Origin: Catajapyx aquilonaris
Taxonomy: Eukaryota
Direction of reading: 5' to 3'
Length of the DNA: 32,274 nt
NCBI GenBank assembly: GCA_000934665.2
Contig: JYFJ02004426.1
Span: forward strand, 1 to 32,274
Below the pieces are notes generated by a model. The model made no database searches. It had not been told where the DNA came from and saw nothing but the letters and a program-made list of their open reading frames with translations. Both the position numbers and the translations under genes were made by a program. Below, piece by piece: positions 4,721 through 31,488 of this stretch. Each line of letters begins with the position of its first letter. Positions within the stretch are counted from its first letter, which is position 1.

Positions 4721-6335
4721 TCCACATTAGAGGTGCCATCAGGTTGAGCTCAAGAATCATGGAAGTTGGCTTATTCATAAAGACCTATCATCCGTGCCTT
4801 CAGCAATAAAAATATCAATCAACAGTTCAAAATGCAGAGATCCCTATGATGTACAGCACCAATATGCTATAAAATTAACCTAGTTATCATCTACCAACAG
4901 GTTTTGACACTAACTGGACTGCATATTGCTGTGCCAGCAGCATGATATAGTGGTTATAGTCTATTTACTTTGGGTAACCTAAATATTTCTCACAAATCAC
5001 AACATGGTTTCTGTGAAGCTTTTTGGTTACTCTGACAAGAGAAAAAGTAATTTTCTAATAACAAGAAGTGGAAAAAATAAACTTCAGAAATGGTGACATC
5101 AGAATAATTATATTGTTCCCCCCTGAGAAAAAAAAAAACTGTAAAAAAAATAGAGAGACTGCTGACCTTGACTTCCTGATTCCACCATGGAGGGATAACC
5201 TCAAACCTCGTCAACATAATTATCCTACTCCAAAATTTGCTGATGGAGCAAAACGGATGCCAGTTTTGGAATCAGCGCCACAGATCTACCCTAAAATCAA
5301 TCTAACCTTCAAGGCAACAAAATGTGTGTTGACCAGTGTTATGGTTCAAAAGAAAGCATCTCACACTAGTGACAGTACTATGGAAAAAATGGCAGCAGGA
5401 TAGGAACAACGGGCTGCTTTGTCCAAATACTCGTATGCCAAGTGACAAAGTCACAATTTTTATTGCATATACAAGAAACCAACAAATGAAGAAAAACAAT
5501 GTCGAGTTGTGCAGACATCTCCCAACTAGAATGTGGGCATCATTGTGTATGACTTTACTCCAGACAATTCTACCTGCATCACTCTCCGTGCTACCCTCAA
5601 GATGAGCAGGAACCAAAAAGCAAGGTTTCAAAACCATTACAGCACCTTTTCTTTAACGTAAATAAAACCAAATGTGCTTACTCAATGCAACAAAGCATGT
5701 CCTTCCCACTCTCACACAGGACCCTCCCTTGCATAACCTGGCTTTCCTATGTCAAACTGTTTCCTTCCTTCCTGCATTATTCGAAAAACCCGCACTTAGA
5801 GCAGCTGCTTCACATCTGTCTTCTTGGAACCAGGTGCTTTCAAACATGCAGCACCCAGTGTGTATGGTTAAGAGTCACCATTCGGGATATTTTTATTGGG
5901 TAGGTTACAAGGTCAGCAGGTATTCATAACAATGGAAGCATCAGGTAGCAAAGAGGTTTAGCTACAGAGGGTGGGAACCAAACAAATCAATGGCTCGGAA
6001 TCTATACTAGGCTAGCAGAGTGCAGTAAGGGAGGTCAAGAGTGCACAAAATAATTAACAATAGTAGAGGCACAAAATAATGCCAAAATTCAAAAAAAAAA
6101 AGGAAAGGGAAGCATGTCAAGTTTTTCTTTGCATCTCCTTCCGTATATGAAAAATAAGTTCAGAGTGAGGACAAGCTGAGAAGGCAATGAGAACCACAGG
6201 ATATGAATTGGGGAGAAGGCGCAAAGGGAGGGGAACACTATTGTAGTATACGTACAGCGTAAGTCCTGCGGGTGCACAGAAGGTGATGGGATGGCTGGCT
6301 GGTTCACTTGAATCCCAATCAAATGGCGTTGGGCA

Positions 6336-6495
6336 TTAAAAGGTGCTTCCTTCAGGTGGCTGTGACAACTTAATGTTCTCCTTGACTGTCATTAGTCGGC
6401 GGAGCTCTTGGAGCACGGTTTTCATGATGTGGTCTCGCTGCCACCTGGCCAGCAATATGGGAACACACTCAACACAGTACATGGGTTCGGGGTTT
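6336..6495 (-). CDS. UBE2V: Terminal exon resembling the C-terminus of ubiquitin-conjugating enzyme E2 variant (UBE2V/Uev1A/MMS2)
   Basis: Translates to NPEPMYCVECVPILLARWQRDHIMKTVLQELRRLMTVKENIKLSQPPEGSTF*, matching the UEV tail LAxW...IKxxLQELRRLMxxKENxKLxQPPEG. Not in the ORF track; TACAG acceptor ends at 6496. Confidence 0.88.
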
Positions 6496-9400
6496 CTGTA
6501 ATTGGTACCGTGCATATGTGAAGAGTGTCATCCCCTTAGGGAAAGCAGTCATAAAAGTCGCTAGCTTATAAACATGATTTCAGACCATAATGCTAAAAAC
6601 AAACTTCAGACTAGGTTACTCCTGCAGGCCCCTATGCCATGGGGTAAATGTGCCCTCCACCTTCCTCCCCTCGTAGCCCAGGATGCAGTGAACCTGCTCA
6701 TGATTTTCGCTCATCTTCACCACCTGAGCACGGACCATCATACCTTCCATCCAGGTGACCCCCTGTTTTAGATCACACCTGGCCCCGTGCCCCGGTAACC
6801 TCCTGAACTCCACAGGCATTTCAGCTACCTCTGCTCCATTCATCACCTTCTCTTTGCAAGTATCAATCACCAGAACGTCCATCAACTCCCCATCCACTTT
6901 CAGGATATACACACGCTCCCAGAAATCTTCTTCTGGTAGCTTTGCAAGCATGATGGTCATCGGTAATGGCTTGCATCGCGGTAAGTTGTGCTTAACTGCA
7001 TCCAGATCTGCCATGTTTTGAAAGACATCCATAGAAGATATAACACTTGCAAGGAAGGCCTCAGTGGTAAGGGCTCTTGTGATAATGACCCTCAGCCGTT
7101 GCCCAGGTGTCACCTGACACAGACTGCTTATTCCCAATCCTTGGAAATGAGACAAGCATTGGTCCATCTCCGTGTGCTGTGAAAAGGGGTGAGCAGAACG
7201 GTTGGATTCGGGATCAGATGCACACCCTTCCTCAGAGTCCTTCATGCCCTTTCCATCTAAGCTCGGCAAGAAGCCTGCAGCATCATTATGCTGGAAATAA
7301 AAATTAAAAGGCAATGTGATGATGTTTGTGACCATTTCACACTGAATTATCTGAGTGTTCTGAAGCATCATTTGACGATTCATAGTGTGATCAATCCATA
7401 ATAAACTCTTACTTTAAAAAAGCAAACAGCCAGTGATTAAGTTCAAACATGTAGCTCAGACAAGATGGGTGTAAAATGCCAAATGAAAGGCTTGCTTATT
7501 CCAGCTGACAACAAAGCAGAAATGCAAATTAATGTTTATCTAAATTGCTGCATTAGGATGGCCATTATTAGGTTGATCAGTGGATAGTGTGTTGCAACTG
7601 ACATCTGCCAGCTTCACATTTGCCTCCTAGCCATGAGAACATACCAGCTTTGCAGAAGCACGAGTGCATGACCCATCACTCGGCATGTGGGAGGCCACTT
7701 CATCATCCCCTCCTGGTGGTTCCTTCCTATCTTGCTTTTCTGCATAAGAGAAGTCAAATCTGTACTTTCACATACCTTACCCAAAAGAATGGATAGTCCT
7801 TGGATCACATAAAAACTACACAATGCAATATTATTTCTTGTAAGCTACCAGTATCTTAAGTCAATGACCATGATGGCCAATGTGAGGGGAAGGTCTAATT
7901 CTTTGGTGATGACATTTCTGTAAGGGCCTTACAGAAATGTCATCACCAAAGAACCAAAGCCTTACAGTAAGGCAGTGCTATAGTATAGAAAAAGTTCACA
8001 ACTACACTGCTGTCCCACCTAGAAAAGGCACATATCTGCACTTTGCAACAAGTTCCTTTGGGCCTTTTGGGTACGAATTCCTCACAGCAAACTTTAAAGT
8101 GGGTTCAGAAGAGTAGGCATCCACATTTCCATCAATGTGAATATGAGTTAACATCTAAACACATGGGACCCCAGTAACTTAAATTTTTTATAATGCACAG
8201 AACAAAAATTTACCAAGGTGCCACAAGATATATTGCTCACATACCAAAATTAAGAAGAAAAAAACACTATTATATTTCCACTGTTGTCATGATTCTCAAG
8301 TGTCTTATGAAATATGGCAAAAGTCATGATTTGTGGTTTATGTTGGTCCCAGGATCTTTCAGTGAGTGGCCCAAATATTTGGAAATAGTTATTGCCTGCC
8401 AAGTACATCGTGAACCAGTGGGTATGGACTTAAAACTGCCAATATATGCCACTTATTAATCAAAATAATTAAGGAAAATGTACCAGTCCTAAAGAAAAAA
8501 TGAGAGCCTTGTCTCACCTTGTTGAACAGTCCCAGTGTCAGCCAGGCATCCAACCTGCTCTCTGCCATCTGAGGGTATAAACTCCTGAAAAGAAAATGTG
8601 TTTTCAATCTCGTTATTGTTGCACTCACCTCATGTTCACCCTAAGCATGCTAATCCAGAAACACTCGGCCTCTAAAAATGATAAATTTGATATTCAATAT
8701 TCCTTTATTTACCCAAGACTTGGCCATTGAAACTTACAGGAAGCACACCAAAAATATTGTGGGTTAGTCTGCTGAATAGGACAAGGTAACTGGGCATTAT
8801 GAGATCTTAACTCAAAAAGTAGGATGGATACTGGTGTTTAATAGCACATTATTTTAAATGAGCTAAGTAGAATGGTATTGTATTGTTACTAAACATCAAG
8901 AGATATTTTAAAAAGTTTCAGTGATGTATTCATCAACAGTACACCAAGGAAATATCAGTTTTTATAACACTACCAATCCCACTTGCCCTATCCAATTTGG
9001 CTGATTTATTTTCTGAGTGATGCATGCTGGTGTAATGATATACCGGTACTGCACTTCTTTCACTAGCCTAACTCTGATTCTTGCTTGTCAGAATCTCCAT
9101 TTGATGGACTGTGGCATACTGAGGAGCATAATCTTTTCCCATTAGACTAAATAGAGATCAGAATACCTGGAAAAACTCAGATTCTTAATGCATCCAACCT
9201 GATGCAACTGGCAATAATTAATTAAGCAGTTCAAATAATCATTTTTACAGAAAGGTATTGTCCTAATAATGGCAATCTTTAAGTGATATTCCCTGGAAGG
9301 GCTGGTCATGCATAATTATACACCTGGTACACCATGGTGTTAGTGGAAACTTGCCAGAATGATGCCACCTTCCAAACTGCCTTCATTGCATCCCTTGACT

Positions 9401-13352: not shown

Positions 13353-13970
13353 ATATAAATTATATCAAATGAACTGTCGTGAGATGAGGAAACATTTTGG
13401 TGGCATCGGGTATAACCTAGATTGTAAAATAAAAATGCTAAAAAATTCGCATTATTGTTCAAAACGGACACATTTCATATGGTCCAATGTCATTGCTAAA
13501 CACATGCTAAGCGTGTGGAATTAATATGGTAGGTATACATTGTCATCTGATCATTACTATACTGTCGAAGGACAACATCACAGGTCAAGCAGTCTTGGAA
13601 ATAAAACTTCTGAAATGTCTGTTTTCCACTAATTTGGTCATCTTCGAGGTAATTTTTTCTCAATGTAGGGCTGGGTTGAAGTTACCAAATAACGTAGCCT
13701 ATAGAGGGCTTTTCCGGACATTTCATGATTTATTGTGTCCAAGTCTGATTGACCTTGATGTTGCCCTACAATAGTAATGAGCAGATGACAATGTACCTAC
13801 CACATTAATTCCACACAATTAGCATCTGTTTAACAATGACATTGGACCATATGAAATGTGTCCGTTTTGCACAATAATGCGATTTTTTAGCATTTTGATT
13901 TTACAATCTAGGTTAAACATGTTGCCACAAAATGTTCCTCATCTCACAACAGTTCATTTGATATAATATG
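13353..13970. repeat. Long imperfect inverted repeat (arms ~13353-13621 and ~13714-13970) inside the Sola-like element
   Basis: For example AAAACGGACACATTTCATATGGTCCAATGTCATTG pairs with CAATGACATTGGACCATATGAAATGTGTCCGTTTT, and ATATCAAATGAACTGT pairs with ACAGTTCATTTGATAT. Confidence 0.9.
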
Positions 13971-19562: not shown

Positions 19563-22500
19563 ATGGCCTTACAATCAATGAGACGTACCTTCGTCACCAA
19601 CCTCAAGACTGGGGTGTATGAGGCAAAGCTACTGCCAACAGTAGAGGTATGCTTATTAGCAATAATATTGGCCGGTTCACCTTTACGTGACCAAATAAGC
19701 AATGGGTGGGACGGAACTCCAGGTCAAAATCCCGCCATGGTACGCTTTGACAGTACAAGTCTAAAATGTAGATGTAGGGGTGAGAAATAACTGGTACCTA
19801 CATAGACGACGATCGACGAGCCCTGACTAGTTGCAGGATGAGTCAGAACTCCCGGTCAATTGGCCGCCAGTGTAGCCTACTTCTTGGTCCAAAACTAAAC
19901 TATGAAAAATAATCATGGCCGATAAATATCGAGACATCAACCAGACGTCGACAATAACGGACGTTTTGGTGACTCTTATTATGTTAGATTGTCAAGTGAA
20001 ATATTGTGAAAACTATTTTGAGCAGAACTACTTGGCGTCCCCGATAGTTCTTTGTAGGCTTACAGCACAAAGCCAGCATGTGTAAGCTACATAAAAACTA
20101 ACTCTGAATGTAATGATTGAGATATTTTGTAAAATAAAATCACTCCATTGCATTGGACTGGTTACAGGCATGGTTAAGAGGCTCCGAGGAAGAAATGCCT
20201 TTTGACTTATCACTACTAGACGCCCTCAGCAGACAGGTGCTAACCAATGCGAACATGATGGAGTCATCTACTTTGGCAAAACTGGCGCACATGTGTCTTG
20301 ACAGGATCTTCAGAACCCAGAGGAAGGACGTGCTCACATATATCATGCCATGCATTCAGTACCGAATTACGAAGATCGTCGCCTACCTGCAAGCCAAGGC
20401 AAGTCATAATATTTATACTGTACTCTCCATAACTGATCAACTTTATTATCTTGTAAAGCGTAAATGTTCCATTTTTGAAGAAAGATGATCAATGTGGCAA
20501 TTATTAAATAAATTGCAATCACAAGGAAAACAAAAATATTCAGGAATATAACTACTCTTCTACTGTATATGAAACGGAAATCACACTCTGCATGATTAAT
20601 TTTTTTTTACAAAATTATCCCATACCATTTCAGGATGAAAGTTACCTGGCATGCTGCGTAGGGAGCAACCTGGTTCGTGTGATCTATTTCGAAAATGCAT
20701 GGTTGAAAGAGCCAATGATTTCCATCACTCAGGAAGCAATTTCCATACTCTGCAAAGCCTACTCACATGCCACTTTGAACACCCCAATCGGGAATACTGC
20801 AAACCAATTCATGGACCAAACACCTGATCTCATCTTCCAAATGTGCAGGTCTACACTAATTCTGCACTGCAACTATGCGTGGAGCGACCGAATACCTTGG
20901 TTTACTATTGTTGATGACATCATAAAAGCATGTGGAAGGCGTACATTGGAACGTTATTCTTTTCACATTCTCAATGCCCTGGTGCGACATGCTCTTGACA
21001 TCGGCAAAAGACTTGTCCAAGGAGGCAGTTTTATCTCACGGGACTTGTCCATGTGGCTAGAGGTGGCCATTCCAAGATGGATTGGCACGATGTTTCGGGT
21101 TTGTCCGATCCAGGAACCTGACCTTCTGAATTCGTTACAAAATACCATCCAATCGAGAGTGTCGCCCTTGTACTCGGCAATACTGGCATGTGGGATAGAA
21201 ACCTGTCGTATGGAGTTACAGTGCATCATCATATTCGATGCAATCTCTTTCTACAGAATGTTCAACCTCTTTTCCCTTAAACAAATGCTCAATGCAAATC
21301 CGTTGGTGTGGAAGAATCCTCAGTACAATTCGCCTACAGTGGCAGTTGTTCAGAGCATCATGGAACATATGCTGGATAATGATCATGCAGCTCCGCTTAT
21401 GCAAGTCAATGGTGCTACCAAAAGACTGTTGCTCATGATGTCACGCGCCTTGGTCCTGCTGAGCCCTGCTGAGCCTGCCTGCAACGATTCGTCCAAACTG
21501 GAAGAAATTGAATGGCAGGTCCAAACTTCGAAGTCAATATTGGAAGTGATTCTCAGAGAGACAAATGCAGAACACGTGCCATGGGAGAGTGCGGCCCTTG
21601 CTCTCCTGTCGGCCTTCTCTCGGATCGTGTGGTGGTTGAACACAATTAAGCCGCATACTGATAAGCATGTGAAATTGTGTAAACTGATGAGTAAGTAGAG
21701 GACATAATCTTTTTGGAATAAAATATTATTCTGACTTTGTAACTTTGTGGCTGGCAGCATCAGTTTAACCTCACAGATTTGGTCGGCTTGTTGGTTTGTT
21801 CATTGGGGTCAAGCGATCTGGCCCCGAAGGGCCTCATAGGATATCCATCGCACAATAGTAATCATAACCAAGCTATGAGAGATCAAGGAAAGGAGGGAGT
21901 AGTCAGCCACAAAGTTACTCACTCCAGTCTATGTGAACATGACCATGGCAAAAATGTTCTTTGCAGTCGAGCTTGTGCGGCCAGTGTGTATCGTTGCCAG
22001 TCAGAGAGGCCTTGCTCGAGAAGAAAAGGATTTGCAAGAACTATGGACTAACTGTTCTGACATGATCGCCAGCCAACAACCCCAGCAACAATCCCAGCAA
22101 CAACCACAGGTAACACTTCATTCCTAATAGCTTTACTTCAGTCTATTGCATTCAAATAATATTAGGACAGGTAAATCCAAGTTGAAAATTCATTTTACAT
22201 AAGGACCCAAAGCGAGTGACTGGGACTGAGTGGGAAATAAGTATCGGTACTCGTACTATCATCAGGCATGTATAATAATATATTAATCACTAATCAGGTA
22301 TCAGGTAACTAATCTCTATCGAATCCACATGCTGCTGAAGCTGCTAACATGCCTTGAACTCCCCACAGTGACCAAGAAAAAGTGTATCCAACTGTATACT
22401 GTCTTGTATATAGTCTGCATCAGAAATCATCAGCAGTACATGATATACTAACTATAGAAACTGAACCTTGTTGTAAGAATAGAGCTACAGAACTCTAAGT

Positions 22501-23666
22501 AGAATTACAGTAAAATATAACATGCAGGAGTGAATTTCACAATAATTAAAAAGAAACAATTGTGCCAGTAGTCCAAGCCTACCCAATGGCTCTCATTGAC
22601 GGCCTGCTCTAGAGCTAAAGTATATGCTGTGTCATTTTGGTTGCCACAAAAAGCAGGCTCTGATTGTCTGACTTCACACTCTGGTCAATTTCTGGGGATC
22701 ATTTTCACCGACGCGACGGTGATCTTGGGAGGTGAGAATATTGTCTCATGAATTAGCAGGCGTGTGACAGTGAGGTTTTTTAACTGGTGTATGCAGCAAT
22801 AATGGCACAACCTTGACGTTTTGACACCAACTGGCCAAAAAGGTATGTCAGTACCAGCAAAGTAATTCTGCTCATCTTGCAGGACTCACACATCTCCCAC
22901 GCTTCCTTTCACTCGATCAACTGGACACCAGATGTTATGGCATTACTCAAAGAGTTTGTGGACACTGAAACAGCCAAGAAAACACGTCAGAAAGCAACTC
23001 GACTGGTGAAACCTCCCCTTGACACGGAAACATCTAAGAAAACACGCCAGCAAGCAACTCGACTGGTGAAACCTCCCCTTGACACGGAAACATCTAAGAA
23101 AACACGCCAGCAAGCACCTCTACTGGTGAAACATACCCTTGACGCTGTCCAGGCACATGAAACTGTAGCCATAGCAAGGACATCCAGAAACATGGTAAAA
23201 GAAGTTGACATAGATTGTACTCTTTGTGTTGGCTTTTATACCCACTTGTGTCGTAAGATTTTCAGAACTTGCGCATGAAAATTTGTTATTGCCGCTGCAT
23301 GTTTTTATGCTTCTAAGACCATGTTATTTCATGCAGGAGGATGTAGAGTGTGGGGTGAAGAAGGTAGCAGATGTTTCCAACGAACACCCTTCCACACCAA
23401 CACCTGTCACTGCTCTTGCCCCGACTGCAGCGGCCATTCCTCGGGTTCGGAGGAATACAGTGATCAATGTTAATCCTGTACTTCACGATATTCTTCCTGA
23501 GTCCTATCGCCGAATGTACCAACTAACACGTTGTAAGAGAAGCCCGCCTCAAAACAATCAGAGGGAGGCACAAGCATTATCTACCCACATGTGTGTCCCA
23601 AGCCATGCAGTCCCACGAAATCCAAAATCCCGCAAGGTTGCTGACAAGGGACACAATCGAAATTAA
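19563..23666 (+). pseudogene. Six-exon uncharacterised, probably alpha-helical protein gene with a disrupted exon 4; exons 19563-19646, 20168-20398, 20634-21690, 21777-22109, 22883-23194, 23337-23666
   Basis: Phase-compatible splice sites including an AAG|GCAAGT GC donor at 20399, a 1057-bp open exon 3, and AATAAA at 23812-23817. Exon 4 needs a frameshift near 21839 and read-through of TGA (21876) and TAG (21900) to reach its donor in the frame exon 5 requires. No family recognised. Confidence 0.65.
22961..23143 (+). repeat. Coding minisatellite, 3 x 60 bp (DTETSKKTRQQATRLVKPPL)
   Basis: Units start at 22961, 23021 and 23081 and preserve the reading frame. Confidence 0.95.
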
Positions 23667-26048
23667 ATCCATTCCCTGCAAAGTTGAGAGTACTGCACTA
23701 GGATGCTTTGCATTATCACAGACTCAATATAATATGTAAGGTGCTGCATGCAGTCCCACAATGTCTGATGAAGAACTTAGCTTGCTGATTTTATATTCTT
23801 GTTTTATTGGTAATAAACATTATTTTGTCCGTCTATTTTGCCTTGTAATCAGAGCAATCATGTCTAACTGTAAGTGGACCTGGAGTGAGGTGCTTGCATA
23901 ATAGATGGGATGCAGGTGCTGACCTTTATGCAACTGAATTTCACATGGGCATTATTTATGGACAAACACAATGGATATAGTGGGTGTCACAGGACAAGGA
24001 GAGGATGAGGCCCAAACAGAACCTATAGATCATAGTTCGCGGTAAATCAAGCGCAGCAGACTTAATAATCATGTAATGGCAATTTGCCCCATTTAATGCC
24101 CAGCACATTGTGCACACATCTCTGACCATTGCATCTGCTTCTCAACACACATATGACAAATGCTGCGAATCCCCCTTCCTTTCCCCTGTTGCATCCAAAA
24201 CATCAATTAAATAATACCTCTTCACAATCAATGAATCAATCCATACATTACACACTGAACAATGGACTCCAAAAATAAAGAACCTTAATGATGCAATAAT
24301 GGGGGAGGATAGGTCGCACAAATTCACTGAACATCACACTTTAAAGTGCGTTTAATATTTCCCCCCCAAACCTGATGATGTAACCATGGGACGAATAGGA
24401 CATGTAACTCACTGAACCTCACACTTGACGTGCGTTCAACCTGCCCCCAAATCCCTCAACTATGGACCCTGAATTCCGGTTCAACAATACCATCAGCAAG
24501 GGGACTCCCAAACCCAACATATCACAGAATACTTAGCCAGTATCAGCAGCTCCTCTGGACACCCTCACATCGTGAAGCTCAAAAAGGGAGTGGGTCCAAA
24601 ACAAAAAGGGGCTGTTCAAGCAAGGTCAGATAACTCTGTCTGCTGAGAGGGAAGTCAATGGCCCAATTGCCCCAACGTCACATTCAACTGTGACAGTGGG
24701 TGAAACCCAATGTGATGTTATCAGGAGCCTTCAGTCATTCGGAAACCAGGAAAAAGAGGCTATGGTGCTAAATTGAAAATGAGCAAAAAATTGCAGTAGA
24801 TTAATTCCAATTCCTACATTTTTAATATAAGTATAGTGCTAACTCTATGGTAGATGCTTTGAAAATGCTGATTACCAGATTTTGCATTACATCACTCTGC
24901 AACCCCTTTATTTATTAGGTTGTTTTTTAAGCAAATAATTGAGCAAATTCCATCATTATGACACAAGTAGTGATATATTTTTAAAATCTTGAAACACGTG
25001 CATGACCTACACCAATATCTACAAAACCTTTAACGTAATACAAGCAGGCCTGCTACACTTTCGTGGCTATCATGCGAATAAATAAATAATAAATGAATTT
25101 AGAACGATTTAACTTGACATCAATCAAAAACAATCCCCGTCTGCATCGAACTGCTGATTAGAGGCGGGTTCATTTGAGTTTTAAATGCAGCATTTTACTT
25201 TAGAGCTTTTTTTCTTTCAATAACGTACCAAATTAACATTGTTTAAACATTAGGACCAATATTTATGTATACTTGTAATTATCTAACAGAGTTGGAATCA
25301 GAATGGAGAGCAGTCCACGACTTTGTACAGCAGATATTTATGTTACCTTAATTATGAAACACACGCCATATTTTTTAAAGTGATGAACTGGTGCACAGGA
25401 GTTTATCCTGGAAGTGCGTCTGAGTCATCATGAAAGACCATGTACAGTATTTTCCAGCTAAATATTTTCAGAAGAATAAATTCTCTTTACATGAAGAAAC
25501 GAAAAATCTGTGTCACACATCTGAGAAAAACAGTGTCAACTATTTCACTGAGGTGTTGCATCCTTGAAGCAGTTGCAGCAAGTGGACTTATGCTGGATGT
25601 ATCACAACGATTCCGACAAGCCCCGATATAAATTTTTACAGTAAAGTCGCTGCTGTAATCTAGGAATCATTTTATGCATAGATGTGCCATAATATACTCT
25701 CCTTAGCCTCGTTACTGAGTGAGTTACTTAATGTCATGATGGGCAGAAGGCCTGTTGTGCAGAGCAAGCCCGCTACACTTTCGTGGCTATCATGACGGCG
25801 ACCTTCCATCACGACTGTCTGCTATCCGTAATAATCTTTTGATTGACATCCGGACACCCCACTGTCAAGGCAACCGGAAAATATTCCAAATACAGTAGAC
25901 TTAGGCATACATATAATAGACTTCAAGAGATCGCGGGAAAACGTCTACTATAGCCGAGGTATGTTATAGCCAAGTCGCCACTTTTGCTATTTAACTTACA
26001 AAGACACCAAGTTTTATGCCTTCCGTATGCCTATAATGCACACTACAG

Positions 26049-29317: not shown

Positions 29318-29542
29318 AAATAAGTAAATATTATCACACCCGAAGGTAGGCTGCATTAAATTCCTAACTCCCTTTTAGCTTTAGGACTAAGGGCTTATGC
29401 ACACAGGTCAACCGGAAACTGGTAATCTTCTGTGTACATAAGCCCTGACTAATTGACATGCAAGATACCAATGGTGAAATCTTGCCTTTCCTACCAACCT
29501 CAGACATATAAGGTAATTTTGATCTTCTATGCAGGTGGCGCA

Positions 29543-30100
29543 ATGGCCCAGTACTCCGGGGGAAAGGAGTCAGGAGCAGAAGAGGCACAAGCATTGGTGG
29601 AGAATGAAGAAATTGAGGACAATGGTGAAAATTTGGATCCTAGAGATATCCATGGAGCTGCCTGGTTGGGTGACAATGAAGCGGTCACCAGATTTTTGGA
29701 CGATGGAACAGATGTGGACAAGCGGAATATTGACTCATACACCGCACTCCATTTCGCCGCCTTTCAAGGTCACCAATCAACATGCAGGCTTTTGATCGAG
29801 AGGGGAGCAGGAGTAAAGATTCAAACCGTTAGTGGAGACGCTGCAATTCACTTCGCTGCTAAGCAAGGTCACTTGGAGGTTGTTGCCCTCCTCCTTGGGT
29901 CAGGAGCAAACATATCCGACACTGGAGAAAATGGTCAGATGCCTCTTCACTACGCACTGCGTGAGCATCATTTGGATATGGCTCGCCATCTCGTCTCTTC
30001 AATGTCAGCTGATGCAACAGCCATGGACGGGTTTGGAGTACGTGCCATCCATCTGACGAACGAGACGCTGGTAGAAGAAGTGAGTGCACAAGTCATATGA
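29543..30100 (+). CDS. Ankyrin-repeat protein (about four repeats); probably a first coding exon spliced at 30079
   Basis: Repeats IHGAAWLGDNEAVTRFLDDGTDVD, TALHFAAFQGHQSTCRLLIERGA, AAIHFAAKQGHLEVVALLLGSGANI and MPLHYALREHHLDMARHLV. Acceptor TATGCAG ends at 29534, ATG at 29543, GTGAGT donor at 30080, otherwise TGA at 30098-30100. Confidence 0.9.
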   Translation: MAQYSGGKESGAEEAQALVENEEIEDNGENLDPRDIHGAAWLGDNEAVTRFLDDGTDVDKRNIDSYTALHFAAFQGHQSTCRLLIERGAGVKIQTVSGDAAIHFAAKQGHLEVVALLLGSGANISDTGENGQMPLHYALREHHLDMARHLVSSMSADATAMDGFGVRAIHLTNETLVEEVSAQVI

Positions 30101-31278: not shown

Positions 31279-31488
31279 GAGATGTCGACCTTTGACATCG
31301 ACGATGTCCATCCTTTTCAAGTGCGGATACCTCCATGCATGGCTCCATTGCTGGTTGCTGGAGTCAGGCGCTCGAACCGCCAAATAGTAGCTCAACCGCC
31401 TGACCAGCCTCAACCAGCAATGCAAGCATGCATGGGGGTATCCACACTTGAAAGGATGGACATCGTCGATGTCAATGGTCGACATCTC
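31279..31488. repeat. 210-bp foldback element (~90-bp arms)
   Basis: GAGATGTCGACCTTTGACATCGACGATGTCCATCCTTT... is mirrored by ...AAAGGATGGACATCGTCGATGTCAATGGTCGACATCTC. Confidence 0.9.

Follow-up and report, generated by a model that had tools for sequence, protein, structure and literature searches.

A young partial duplicate of the UBE2V 3' end lies behind a Tudor-domain exon in Catajapyx aquilonaris

We analysed contig JYFJ02004426.1 (positions 1-32,274) of the Catajapyx aquilonaris assembly GCA_000934665.2, and this whole stretch of 32,274 nucleotides is called the window here. The feature of interest lies on the minus strand, where a Tudor-domain coding exon is followed, about 150 nt downstream of its stop codon, by DNA that encodes the C-terminal end of a UBE2V protein (the family of UBE2V2, Uev1A and Mms2). 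An earlier note on this locus had proposed that the two are spliced together in frame, with the UBE2V piece captured as the last exon of a Tudor gene. Contigs from public sequencing runs of the same organism were matched to positions 5300-8300 of the window at 80% likeness. Three of these runs (X1-X3) are DNA runs from one sample, which is probably the source of the assembly. A further run, X5, is from another sample and study and was treated as an RNA run on the strength of a spliced, high-depth contig. The contigs carried two forms of the UBE2V sequence, the one found in the window (window-type) and one that we call canonical. The features of the locus, all on the minus strand, are listed below with the evidence for each.

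7291-7311, minus strand: pyrimidine-rich acceptor ccttttaatttttatttccag preceding the Tudor exon (direct sequence reading)
6619-7290, minus strand: Tudor-domain coding exon, 224 codons (Pfam PF00567)
6616-6618, minus strand: TAA that ends the Tudor frame; the GT at 6619-6618 overlaps it (open reading frame and sequence reading)
6467-6615, minus strand: spacer that separates the Tudor stop from the UBE2V-derived piece, with the proposed TACAG acceptor at 6500-6496 (loose ends of contigs)
6339-6466, minus strand: UBE2V-derived coding remnant, 42 codons, VPILLARWQ...EGSTF (profile and contig comparison)
6336-6338, minus strand: stop inherited from UBE2V, TAA here and TAG in the canonical copy (6336 T>C; contig comparison)
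5464-6335, minus strand: copied UBE2V 3' untranslated region (UTR), with AATAAA at 5897-5892 and 5464-5459 (X5 contig and signal search)
5339-5463, minus strand: extra DNA that resembles a canonical-type contig past the end of the mRNA-like contig (DNA-run contigs)

The Tudor exon lies within a stop-to-stop open reading frame (ORF) of 265 aa on the minus strand (6616-7413). It matched the Pfam Tudor family PF00567 with an E of 1.1e-7 and 32.4 bits (cut-off 23), the domain covering residues 88-175, and the residues from this core to the end of the exon are strand-rich. Among cluster representatives we observed 90 matches with E up to 0.001 (22 with E up to 1e-10; best E 1.4e-22), and nearly all were long proteins with several Tudor stretches. 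Ten of the 90 were looked up. The named ones were TDRD15 (Tudor domain containing 15), TDRD15-like and maternal protein tudor-like, and a further one, from Lottia, had just the label 'Tudor domain-containing protein'. The domain in the window matches the repeats of multi-Tudor germline proteins (TDRD15, maternal protein tudor-like) at 21-30% identity. Those proteins have several Tudor stretches, while the exon is single here; a tblastn search with all 90 matches found it to be the sole Tudor-like stretch of the window. Its atlas neighbours were all Tudor clusters (0.90-0.93), with a recognition value of 2197, below the 2300 mark. A search among proteins of near length gave 91 candidates and no significant match, no close orthologue turned up, and a sequence search of the PDB gave no match at E 0.01. 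The single-sequence AlphaFold model of the exon was too poor for use (mean predicted local distance difference test score, pLDDT, of 36.2).

When we examined the frame that follows the TACAG ending at 6496, we observed that the GA left by the Tudor exon and the first A after the acceptor give E-NPEPMYCVECVPILLARWQRDHIMKTVLQELRRLMTVKENIKLSQPPEGSTF, closed by the stop at 6338-6336. The earlier identification of the last 40 or so residues as a UBE2V tail was borne out, at a level far above chance. Against human UBE2V2 chains in the PDB (e.g. 1j7d, 3von) the tail gave an E of 4.9e-12, with query residues 6-53 on residues 92-138 of 138. In a large protein collection 95 of 99 candidates were of the UBE2V type, the top identity being 86% over 79% of the query, to insect sequences. 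A profile of 142 positions was built from 64 of these 95 homologues (134-150 aa long), and its positions 102-142 aligned to 6339-6464 at 63.6-65.1 bits. The tail therefore corresponds to the last 41 positions of the profile, and positions 1-101 are absent. A Pfam search with the tail gave no match to UBC (PF00179), so that the complete UBC-like core of about 140 residues is not there; this fits the note's remark that such a tail could not fold as a UBC domain on its own and might mainly contribute a UTR or terminator; at most it may play that role.

The note had recognised no upstream UBE2V exon in the window, and the profile agreed. Its next scores were 5.6 and 4.8 bits, within the noise set by 30 block-shuffled windows (best score 6.1 bits on average, 11.2 bits at maximum). 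A candidate relic of UBE2V exon 3 on the minus strand at 25355-25447 was seen with tblastn (best E 0.008, 39 high-scoring segment pairs among the 95 queries, with in-frame stops). It was rejected, as its profile score of 4.8 bits falls inside the range of those shuffles. MAFFT placed the first nine residues of the tail, RNPEPMYCV, on upstream UBE2V columns, a hint of a processed copy with deletions. This placement was also rejected, because the profile alignment begins at residue 22 of the ORF and both types of contig stop matching at 6466.

The source of the tail was found in the contigs. An X5 contig of 1524 letters, at a depth of 61.6, matched the 1003 positions of 5464-6466, with 31 substitutions and 37 gap letters; its remaining 518 letters were unlike the window. 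The 30 letters upstream of 6466, reverse-complemented by hand, read ..SSTGVVDGRG and then VPIL, that is, UBE2V coding sequence. This join, ..SSTGVVDGRG/VPIL, crosses the site of the last intron of insect UBE2V genes (compare homologue P0029, ..NSTTGVVDNRQVPVL; in the comparison of this intron the intron-retaining ORFs P0008 and P0012 begin ..FQ/VDNRQ). DNA contigs of X1 and X3 also leave the window at 6466 and continue as ...catttcag/GTGGATGGGCGAG, an acceptor and then the 13 exon letters that X5 also has. Since the acceptor and these letters are found in DNA and the spliced form is found in X5, there is a canonical UBE2V gene with its own last-exon acceptor; and since its product is spliced and abundant in X5, this run behaves as an RNA run. 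The window copy lacks both the acceptor of the canonical gene (tttcag/GTGGAT) and the 13 nt with which the parental last exon begins. As a separate observation, three ORFs from public contigs of other species (P0008, P0009 and P0012) read from the last UBE2V intron through the last exon and past ..EGSTF with no stop; they represent variant or read-through 3' ends of a UBE2V of the insect type, unrelated to the window.

At the other end, the mRNA-like X5 contig reaches as far as 5464, where the distal AATAAA (5464-5459) lies. A DNA contig of the canonical type spans 5339-5450 with 4 other letters; before 5339 it has a loose end of 52 letters. Another contig matches the left flank of the window up to 5345 and departs rightward. 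The 3' breakpoint of the copied piece is thus likely at 5339-5345; the 7-nt overlap of these two contig ends may be junction microhomology, though it is only a hint. As the likeness passes the end of the mRNA-like sequence, a duplication at the DNA level is more likely than a retrocopy. Since the sequence on either side is different (loose ends at 6466 and at 5339/5345), the piece is a dispersed copy at another locus rather than an allele. A repeat search and self-BLAST detected neither a repeat that touches 5300-7300 nor transposon ends in its surroundings. Of the 27 X5 differences listed, 24 recur in one or more DNA runs of the sample that bears the window type, and the same holds for 8 of the 9 indels, so both UBE2V forms are present in the same DNA sample; positions 6204, 6220 and 6225 and a gap of 6 nt at 6246 were peculiar to X5. 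The substitution divergence of about 3% makes the copy young. These comparisons supported a duplication of the UBE2V 3' end together with its 3' UTR, as the earlier note had suspected. An expressed, canonical copy is similar to the window from 6466 down to 5464 in X5, and down to 5339 in the DNA contigs. The AATAAA that the note had picked out at 5897-5892 lies inside the copied UTR, as does the second one.

We further compared the copied coding piece with the canonical copy. The 42 aligned codons hold 4 nonsynonymous and 3 synonymous listed differences, the change in the stop codon, and one extra codon in the window. The seven differences are as follows (residue counts are among the 95 homologues).

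6357: synonymous, P in both
6368: synonymous, L in both
6375: synonymous, N in both
6372: replacement, I in the window and M in the canonical copy; I in 18/95, consensus M in 45/95
6423: replacement, M in the window and I in the canonical copy; M in 0/95, consensus I in 91/95
6427: replacement, I in the window and T in the canonical copy; I in 0/95, consensus T in 73/95
6431: replacement, H in the window and Y in the canonical copy; H in 2/95, consensus Y in 88/95

The canonical copy has the commonest residue at all four replacement sites, which places every replacement on the branch of the window copy. The extra L codon, which lies near 6450, has a counterpart in none of the 95 homologues. 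UBE2V2, Uev1A and Mms2 have a conserved RDYTIK stretch, and it is here that the window tail, whose last 42 residues otherwise align to insect UBE2V at up to 86% identity, differs: Y, T and I, among the conserved residues of the C-terminal helices, are replaced by H, I and M. The note had called for a dN/dS check. With 97 nonsynonymous and 29 synonymous sites, the pairwise ratio of nonsynonymous to synonymous differences per site (pN/pS) was 0.40. At least 4 nonsynonymous changes out of 7 are expected with P = 0.010 if both copies evolve at an omega of 0.05, with P = 0.034 if the window copy is at 0.1, and with P = 0.76 if the window copy is neutral. This pattern suggests that the constraint on the window tail is relaxed. 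From 0.09 to 0.33 stops would be expected at the age of the copy; an open frame is then the default, and the absence of stops carries no weight.

The proposed splice was examined next to these data. The Tudor exon ends in ...CTG CAG GAG TAA, and the last letter of GAG together with the first of TAA makes up the GT that would serve as donor. The letters are as the note had given them, with the exon end CAG GA/GTAACC, a gap of 124 nt (6619-6496), TACAG and an open frame. The consensus for a donor is MAG/GTRAGT. Scored over the 7 positions of this consensus, GGA/GTAACC matched at 2. Among the 60 GTs counted on the minus strand in 6300-7420, 29 matched at 3 or more positions and 6 matched at 5. 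The TACAG acceptor at 6496 is preceded by 9 pyrimidines out of 19, and from its sequence the acceptor of the Tudor exon at 7291-7311 is far stronger. The AG at 6535 is a better candidate (15/19 pyrimidines), but it is out of frame and runs into a stop two codons later; another out-of-frame AG lies at 6468 (both frames read by hand). We estimate that an in-frame match has a chance of 1 in 3 for each candidate junction, and that, with the last possible GT and the two AGs within the open stretch of the tail frame, an in-frame pair is close to a coin-flip. Overall, the features of this 'intron' do not exceed chance.

The interval 6467-6603 is unlike the canonical UBE2V copy and unlike a second copy of the Tudor exon (loose ends at 6466 in X1, X3 and X5, and at 6604 in X5). 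As TACAG lies in this interval, the acceptor was not inherited from UBE2V. We found no UBE2V-like tail in the 90 Tudor homologues (profile search, nothing significant), and neither the variant tail of the window nor a Tudor part was present in the 95 UBE2V matches (94-262 aa, best identity 86%). No junction contig or chimeric protein was found in the run contigs or the protein matches, and the one Tudor contig of the RNA-like run was of the second copy. A literature search for a fusion of Tudor and UEV domains gave no paper with both, although the search was limited and does not show that the architecture is unpublished.

The second Tudor copy, together with its upstream intron, is present in the same DNA sample and is more diverged (window 6604-8140; contigs of X1-X3 and X5). 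Over 6962-7404 the DNA-run contigs of this copy have 40 other letters and 23 gap letters relative to the window, single-letter gaps at 7021 and 7179 would break its frame, and the segment 7404-7517 is replaced. A palindromic element of the window at 7899-7953 coincides with a 57-nt skip in this copy. The X5 contig of the second copy (237 letters, depth 2.2, on 6604-6805) passes the TAA and the GT unjoined and parts from the window at 6604, so this copy seems to be without the UBE2V piece. It fits that the Tudor frame ended at the TAA of 6616-6618 before the UBE2V piece arrived, with the reservations that the depth is low and that the stop may not be kept letter for letter in this copy. X5 has no cover of 6815-7290, and as its sole Tudor contig is that of the second copy, the run says nothing on expression.

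Taken together, these data are best explained, with a probability of roughly 0.72, if the tail is an untranslated young relic, a partial duplicate made at the DNA level behind the Tudor exon. The duplication itself, its borders, its youth and the replaced conserved residues are shown by the data. The copy comprises about 1.13 kb (roughly 5339-6466): it starts 13 nt into the last exon of the canonical gene, takes in the stop and the entire 3' UTR, and ends about 120 nt past the distal AATAAA. The canonical UBE2V gene lies elsewhere with its own intron acceptor and is expressed with normal splicing, while the copied piece, having lost that acceptor, would be drifting. The Tudor frame would most likely close at its own TAA, leaving the copied piece as untranslated DNA downstream, able at most to lend polyadenylation signals to a Tudor transcript.

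Several points weigh against this. The run type of X5 is unrecorded, and its RNA nature comes from the spliced, high-depth UBE2V contig. The 7 coding differences are also compatible with moderate constraint (omega of 0.2-0.5 gives P = 0.12-0.45 at this n). Furthermore, the coding part has 7 differences in 128 nt, compared with 19 listed ones across the 872 nt of the UTR (plus no more than 4 unlisted), and drift alone does not predict a higher divergence in the coding part; three of the coding changes, moreover, lie in neighbouring codons. Up to 4 of the 31 substitutions of the X5 contig are unlisted, and these could fall within the coding part. The 3' border rests on contigs of other copies, as X1-X3 list no window-type contig for 5346-5450. 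Finally, that no splicing occurs between 6620 and 6495 is itself inferred, as X5 had no contig of the window's own Tudor copy.

It is in this light that the earlier proposal has to be judged, namely a nascent chimeric gene in which the GT over the TAA is the donor and the TACAG at 6496 the acceptor, so that some Tudor transcripts are spliced to the tail. These would gain 52 residues, made of spacer DNA and the UBE2V C-terminus, and would end at captured UBE2V polyadenylation signals. As written, the junction keeps the frame and no stop interrupts the 52 added codons, the copied 3' UTR retains two AATAAA signals, and the three replacements in adjacent codons could mean new selection. Partial duplicates that recruit flanking sequence are a known source of new genes (PMC3449122), and UEV exons are joined to those of an upstream gene in human Kua-UEV (PMC2926785). 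The frame match, however, is worth about a coin-flip, 29 of 60 nearby GTs outscore the donor, and the acceptor is non-parental with a mediocre tract, a better one that is out of frame lying between it and the donor. The tail has replaced residues that are near-invariant in the 95 homologues, and such a protein is absent among the 95 UBE2V and 90 Tudor matches. The X5 contig of the second Tudor copy, of low depth, runs unspliced through the same GT to 6604. The duplicated UBE2V 3' end of the earlier proposal is supported, while its use as the last Tudor exon is not: an in-frame splice of this kind appears improbable from the sequence features, and a new gene of this type is an unlikely explanation of the locus.

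The same consequences for the Tudor exon would follow if the piece were a 5'-truncated retrocopy of a UBE2V mRNA that had stopped 13 nt inside the last exon. Such retrocopies typically begin within the last exon and hold the whole 3' UTR, as is the case here, and the 5' border is without parental intron sequence. The canonical-type DNA contig, however, remains alike for about 125 nt past the mRNA-like end and its AATAAA (5463 down to 5339), which a longer mRNA isoform could explain, and the window has no A-run at 5339-5345 of the kind that a poly(A) tail leaves in a retro pseudogene. We consider this origin still less probable than the chimeric gene. The least probable explanation, with only a very small chance, is that the window holds an ordinary UBE2V last exon, with the other exons beyond the window and the Tudor exon inside the last intron, or that the two forms are alleles, or that the assembly is misjoined. 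The DNA-run contigs do switch between the two forms along the UTR in an allele-like manner, and the missing window-type contig for 5346-5450 would also fit. The canonical form, though, has another upstream acceptor and another downstream flank, and the window is without the 13 exon letters and the acceptor. The note had itself named an ordinary UBE2V gene as a finding that would speak against its proposal; the window exon is not that gene, as its two flanks are unlike those of the gene. No other UBE2V exon was found in the 25.8 kb upstream, and the independent sample X5 expresses the canonical form only. Window-type contigs with 0 other letters over 6613-6890 and 6962-7490, and a depth of 26-33 that spans 6512-6612 in three runs, also speak against this explanation, although these runs come from a single sample that is probably the source of the assembly.

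The other features of the window are as follows.

29453-30100, plus strand: exon that has a start codon and encodes ankyrin repeats (Pfam Ank_2, E 8.2e-28), on the strand opposite to the Tudor exon
20508-21698, plus strand: 396-codon ORF, with another ORF just before it (20138-20488, plus strand); no Pfam family and no homologue in the 'longer' protein search; this is a large lineage-specific exon or else no gene at all
22961-23140, plus strand: three tandem 60-nt units, 85-100% alike, inside the ORF 22817-23278; they encode a repeated DTETSKKTRQQATRLVKPPL-like motif of 20 residues
12039-12328, 13359-13967 and 31279-31488, with 7899-7953 above: palindromic elements with arms 80-98% complementary, looking like miniature inverted-repeat transposons from their sequence
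296-618/17655-17978 and 1318-1571/16389-16660: two pairs of old inverted repeats with about 75% likeness, colinear, separated by about 15-17 kb and bracketing the Tudor region; probably a single dispersed repeat that is present twice, in opposite orientations

The preferred explanation, a young relic of UBE2V behind the Tudor exon, finds ready comparison. According to PMC3449122, partial duplicates are a substantial fraction of young duplicates, for example 21-38% of them in C. elegans, and account for 27% of the new genes of D. melanogaster. As in those cases, the window copy is young, partial and displaced, has lost its upstream exons and lies beside recruitable foreign sequence; it differs in holding only the last 42 codons and the 3' UTR, and no transcript of it was seen. 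A parental gene elsewhere with different flanks, as expected for a chimera built from a partial duplicate, was also found (the canonical contigs diverge at 6466 and 5339). Human Kua-UEV (TMEM189-UBE2V1) is cited in PMC2926785 as an example of the joining of exons of adjacent genes. There, exons of the upstream gene are spliced to exons of the UBE2V family, the architecture that had been proposed for the window. The window has only the C-terminal quarter of a duplicate, without the parental acceptor. Kua-UEV, in contrast, retains in full the UEV domain of the genuine UBE2V1 gene.

If the chimeric gene were real, some germline Tudor molecules would carry a new helical tail of 52 residues and use the UBE2V 3' UTR with its polyadenylation signals, and the changes of YTI to HIM would be early adaptive ones; we hold this gene caught at birth to be improbable. 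It would then be a dated and very early exon capture by a germline Tudor gene, with the donor, the breakpoints and the source gene still visible, and would be useful for studying the origin of new C-termini and 3' ends; it would not be new ubiquitin machinery, since the UEV N-terminal helix, the part that binds Ubc13, is absent. The piece looks like an ordinary and common type of gene-fragment duplicate, with nothing to show that it is joined to Tudor in one protein, and on this reading it would be one more young duplicate of its kind. It also carries a caution, in that an open, conserved, exon-like piece may lie only a few per cent from its source, and its intactness is then uninformative on function.

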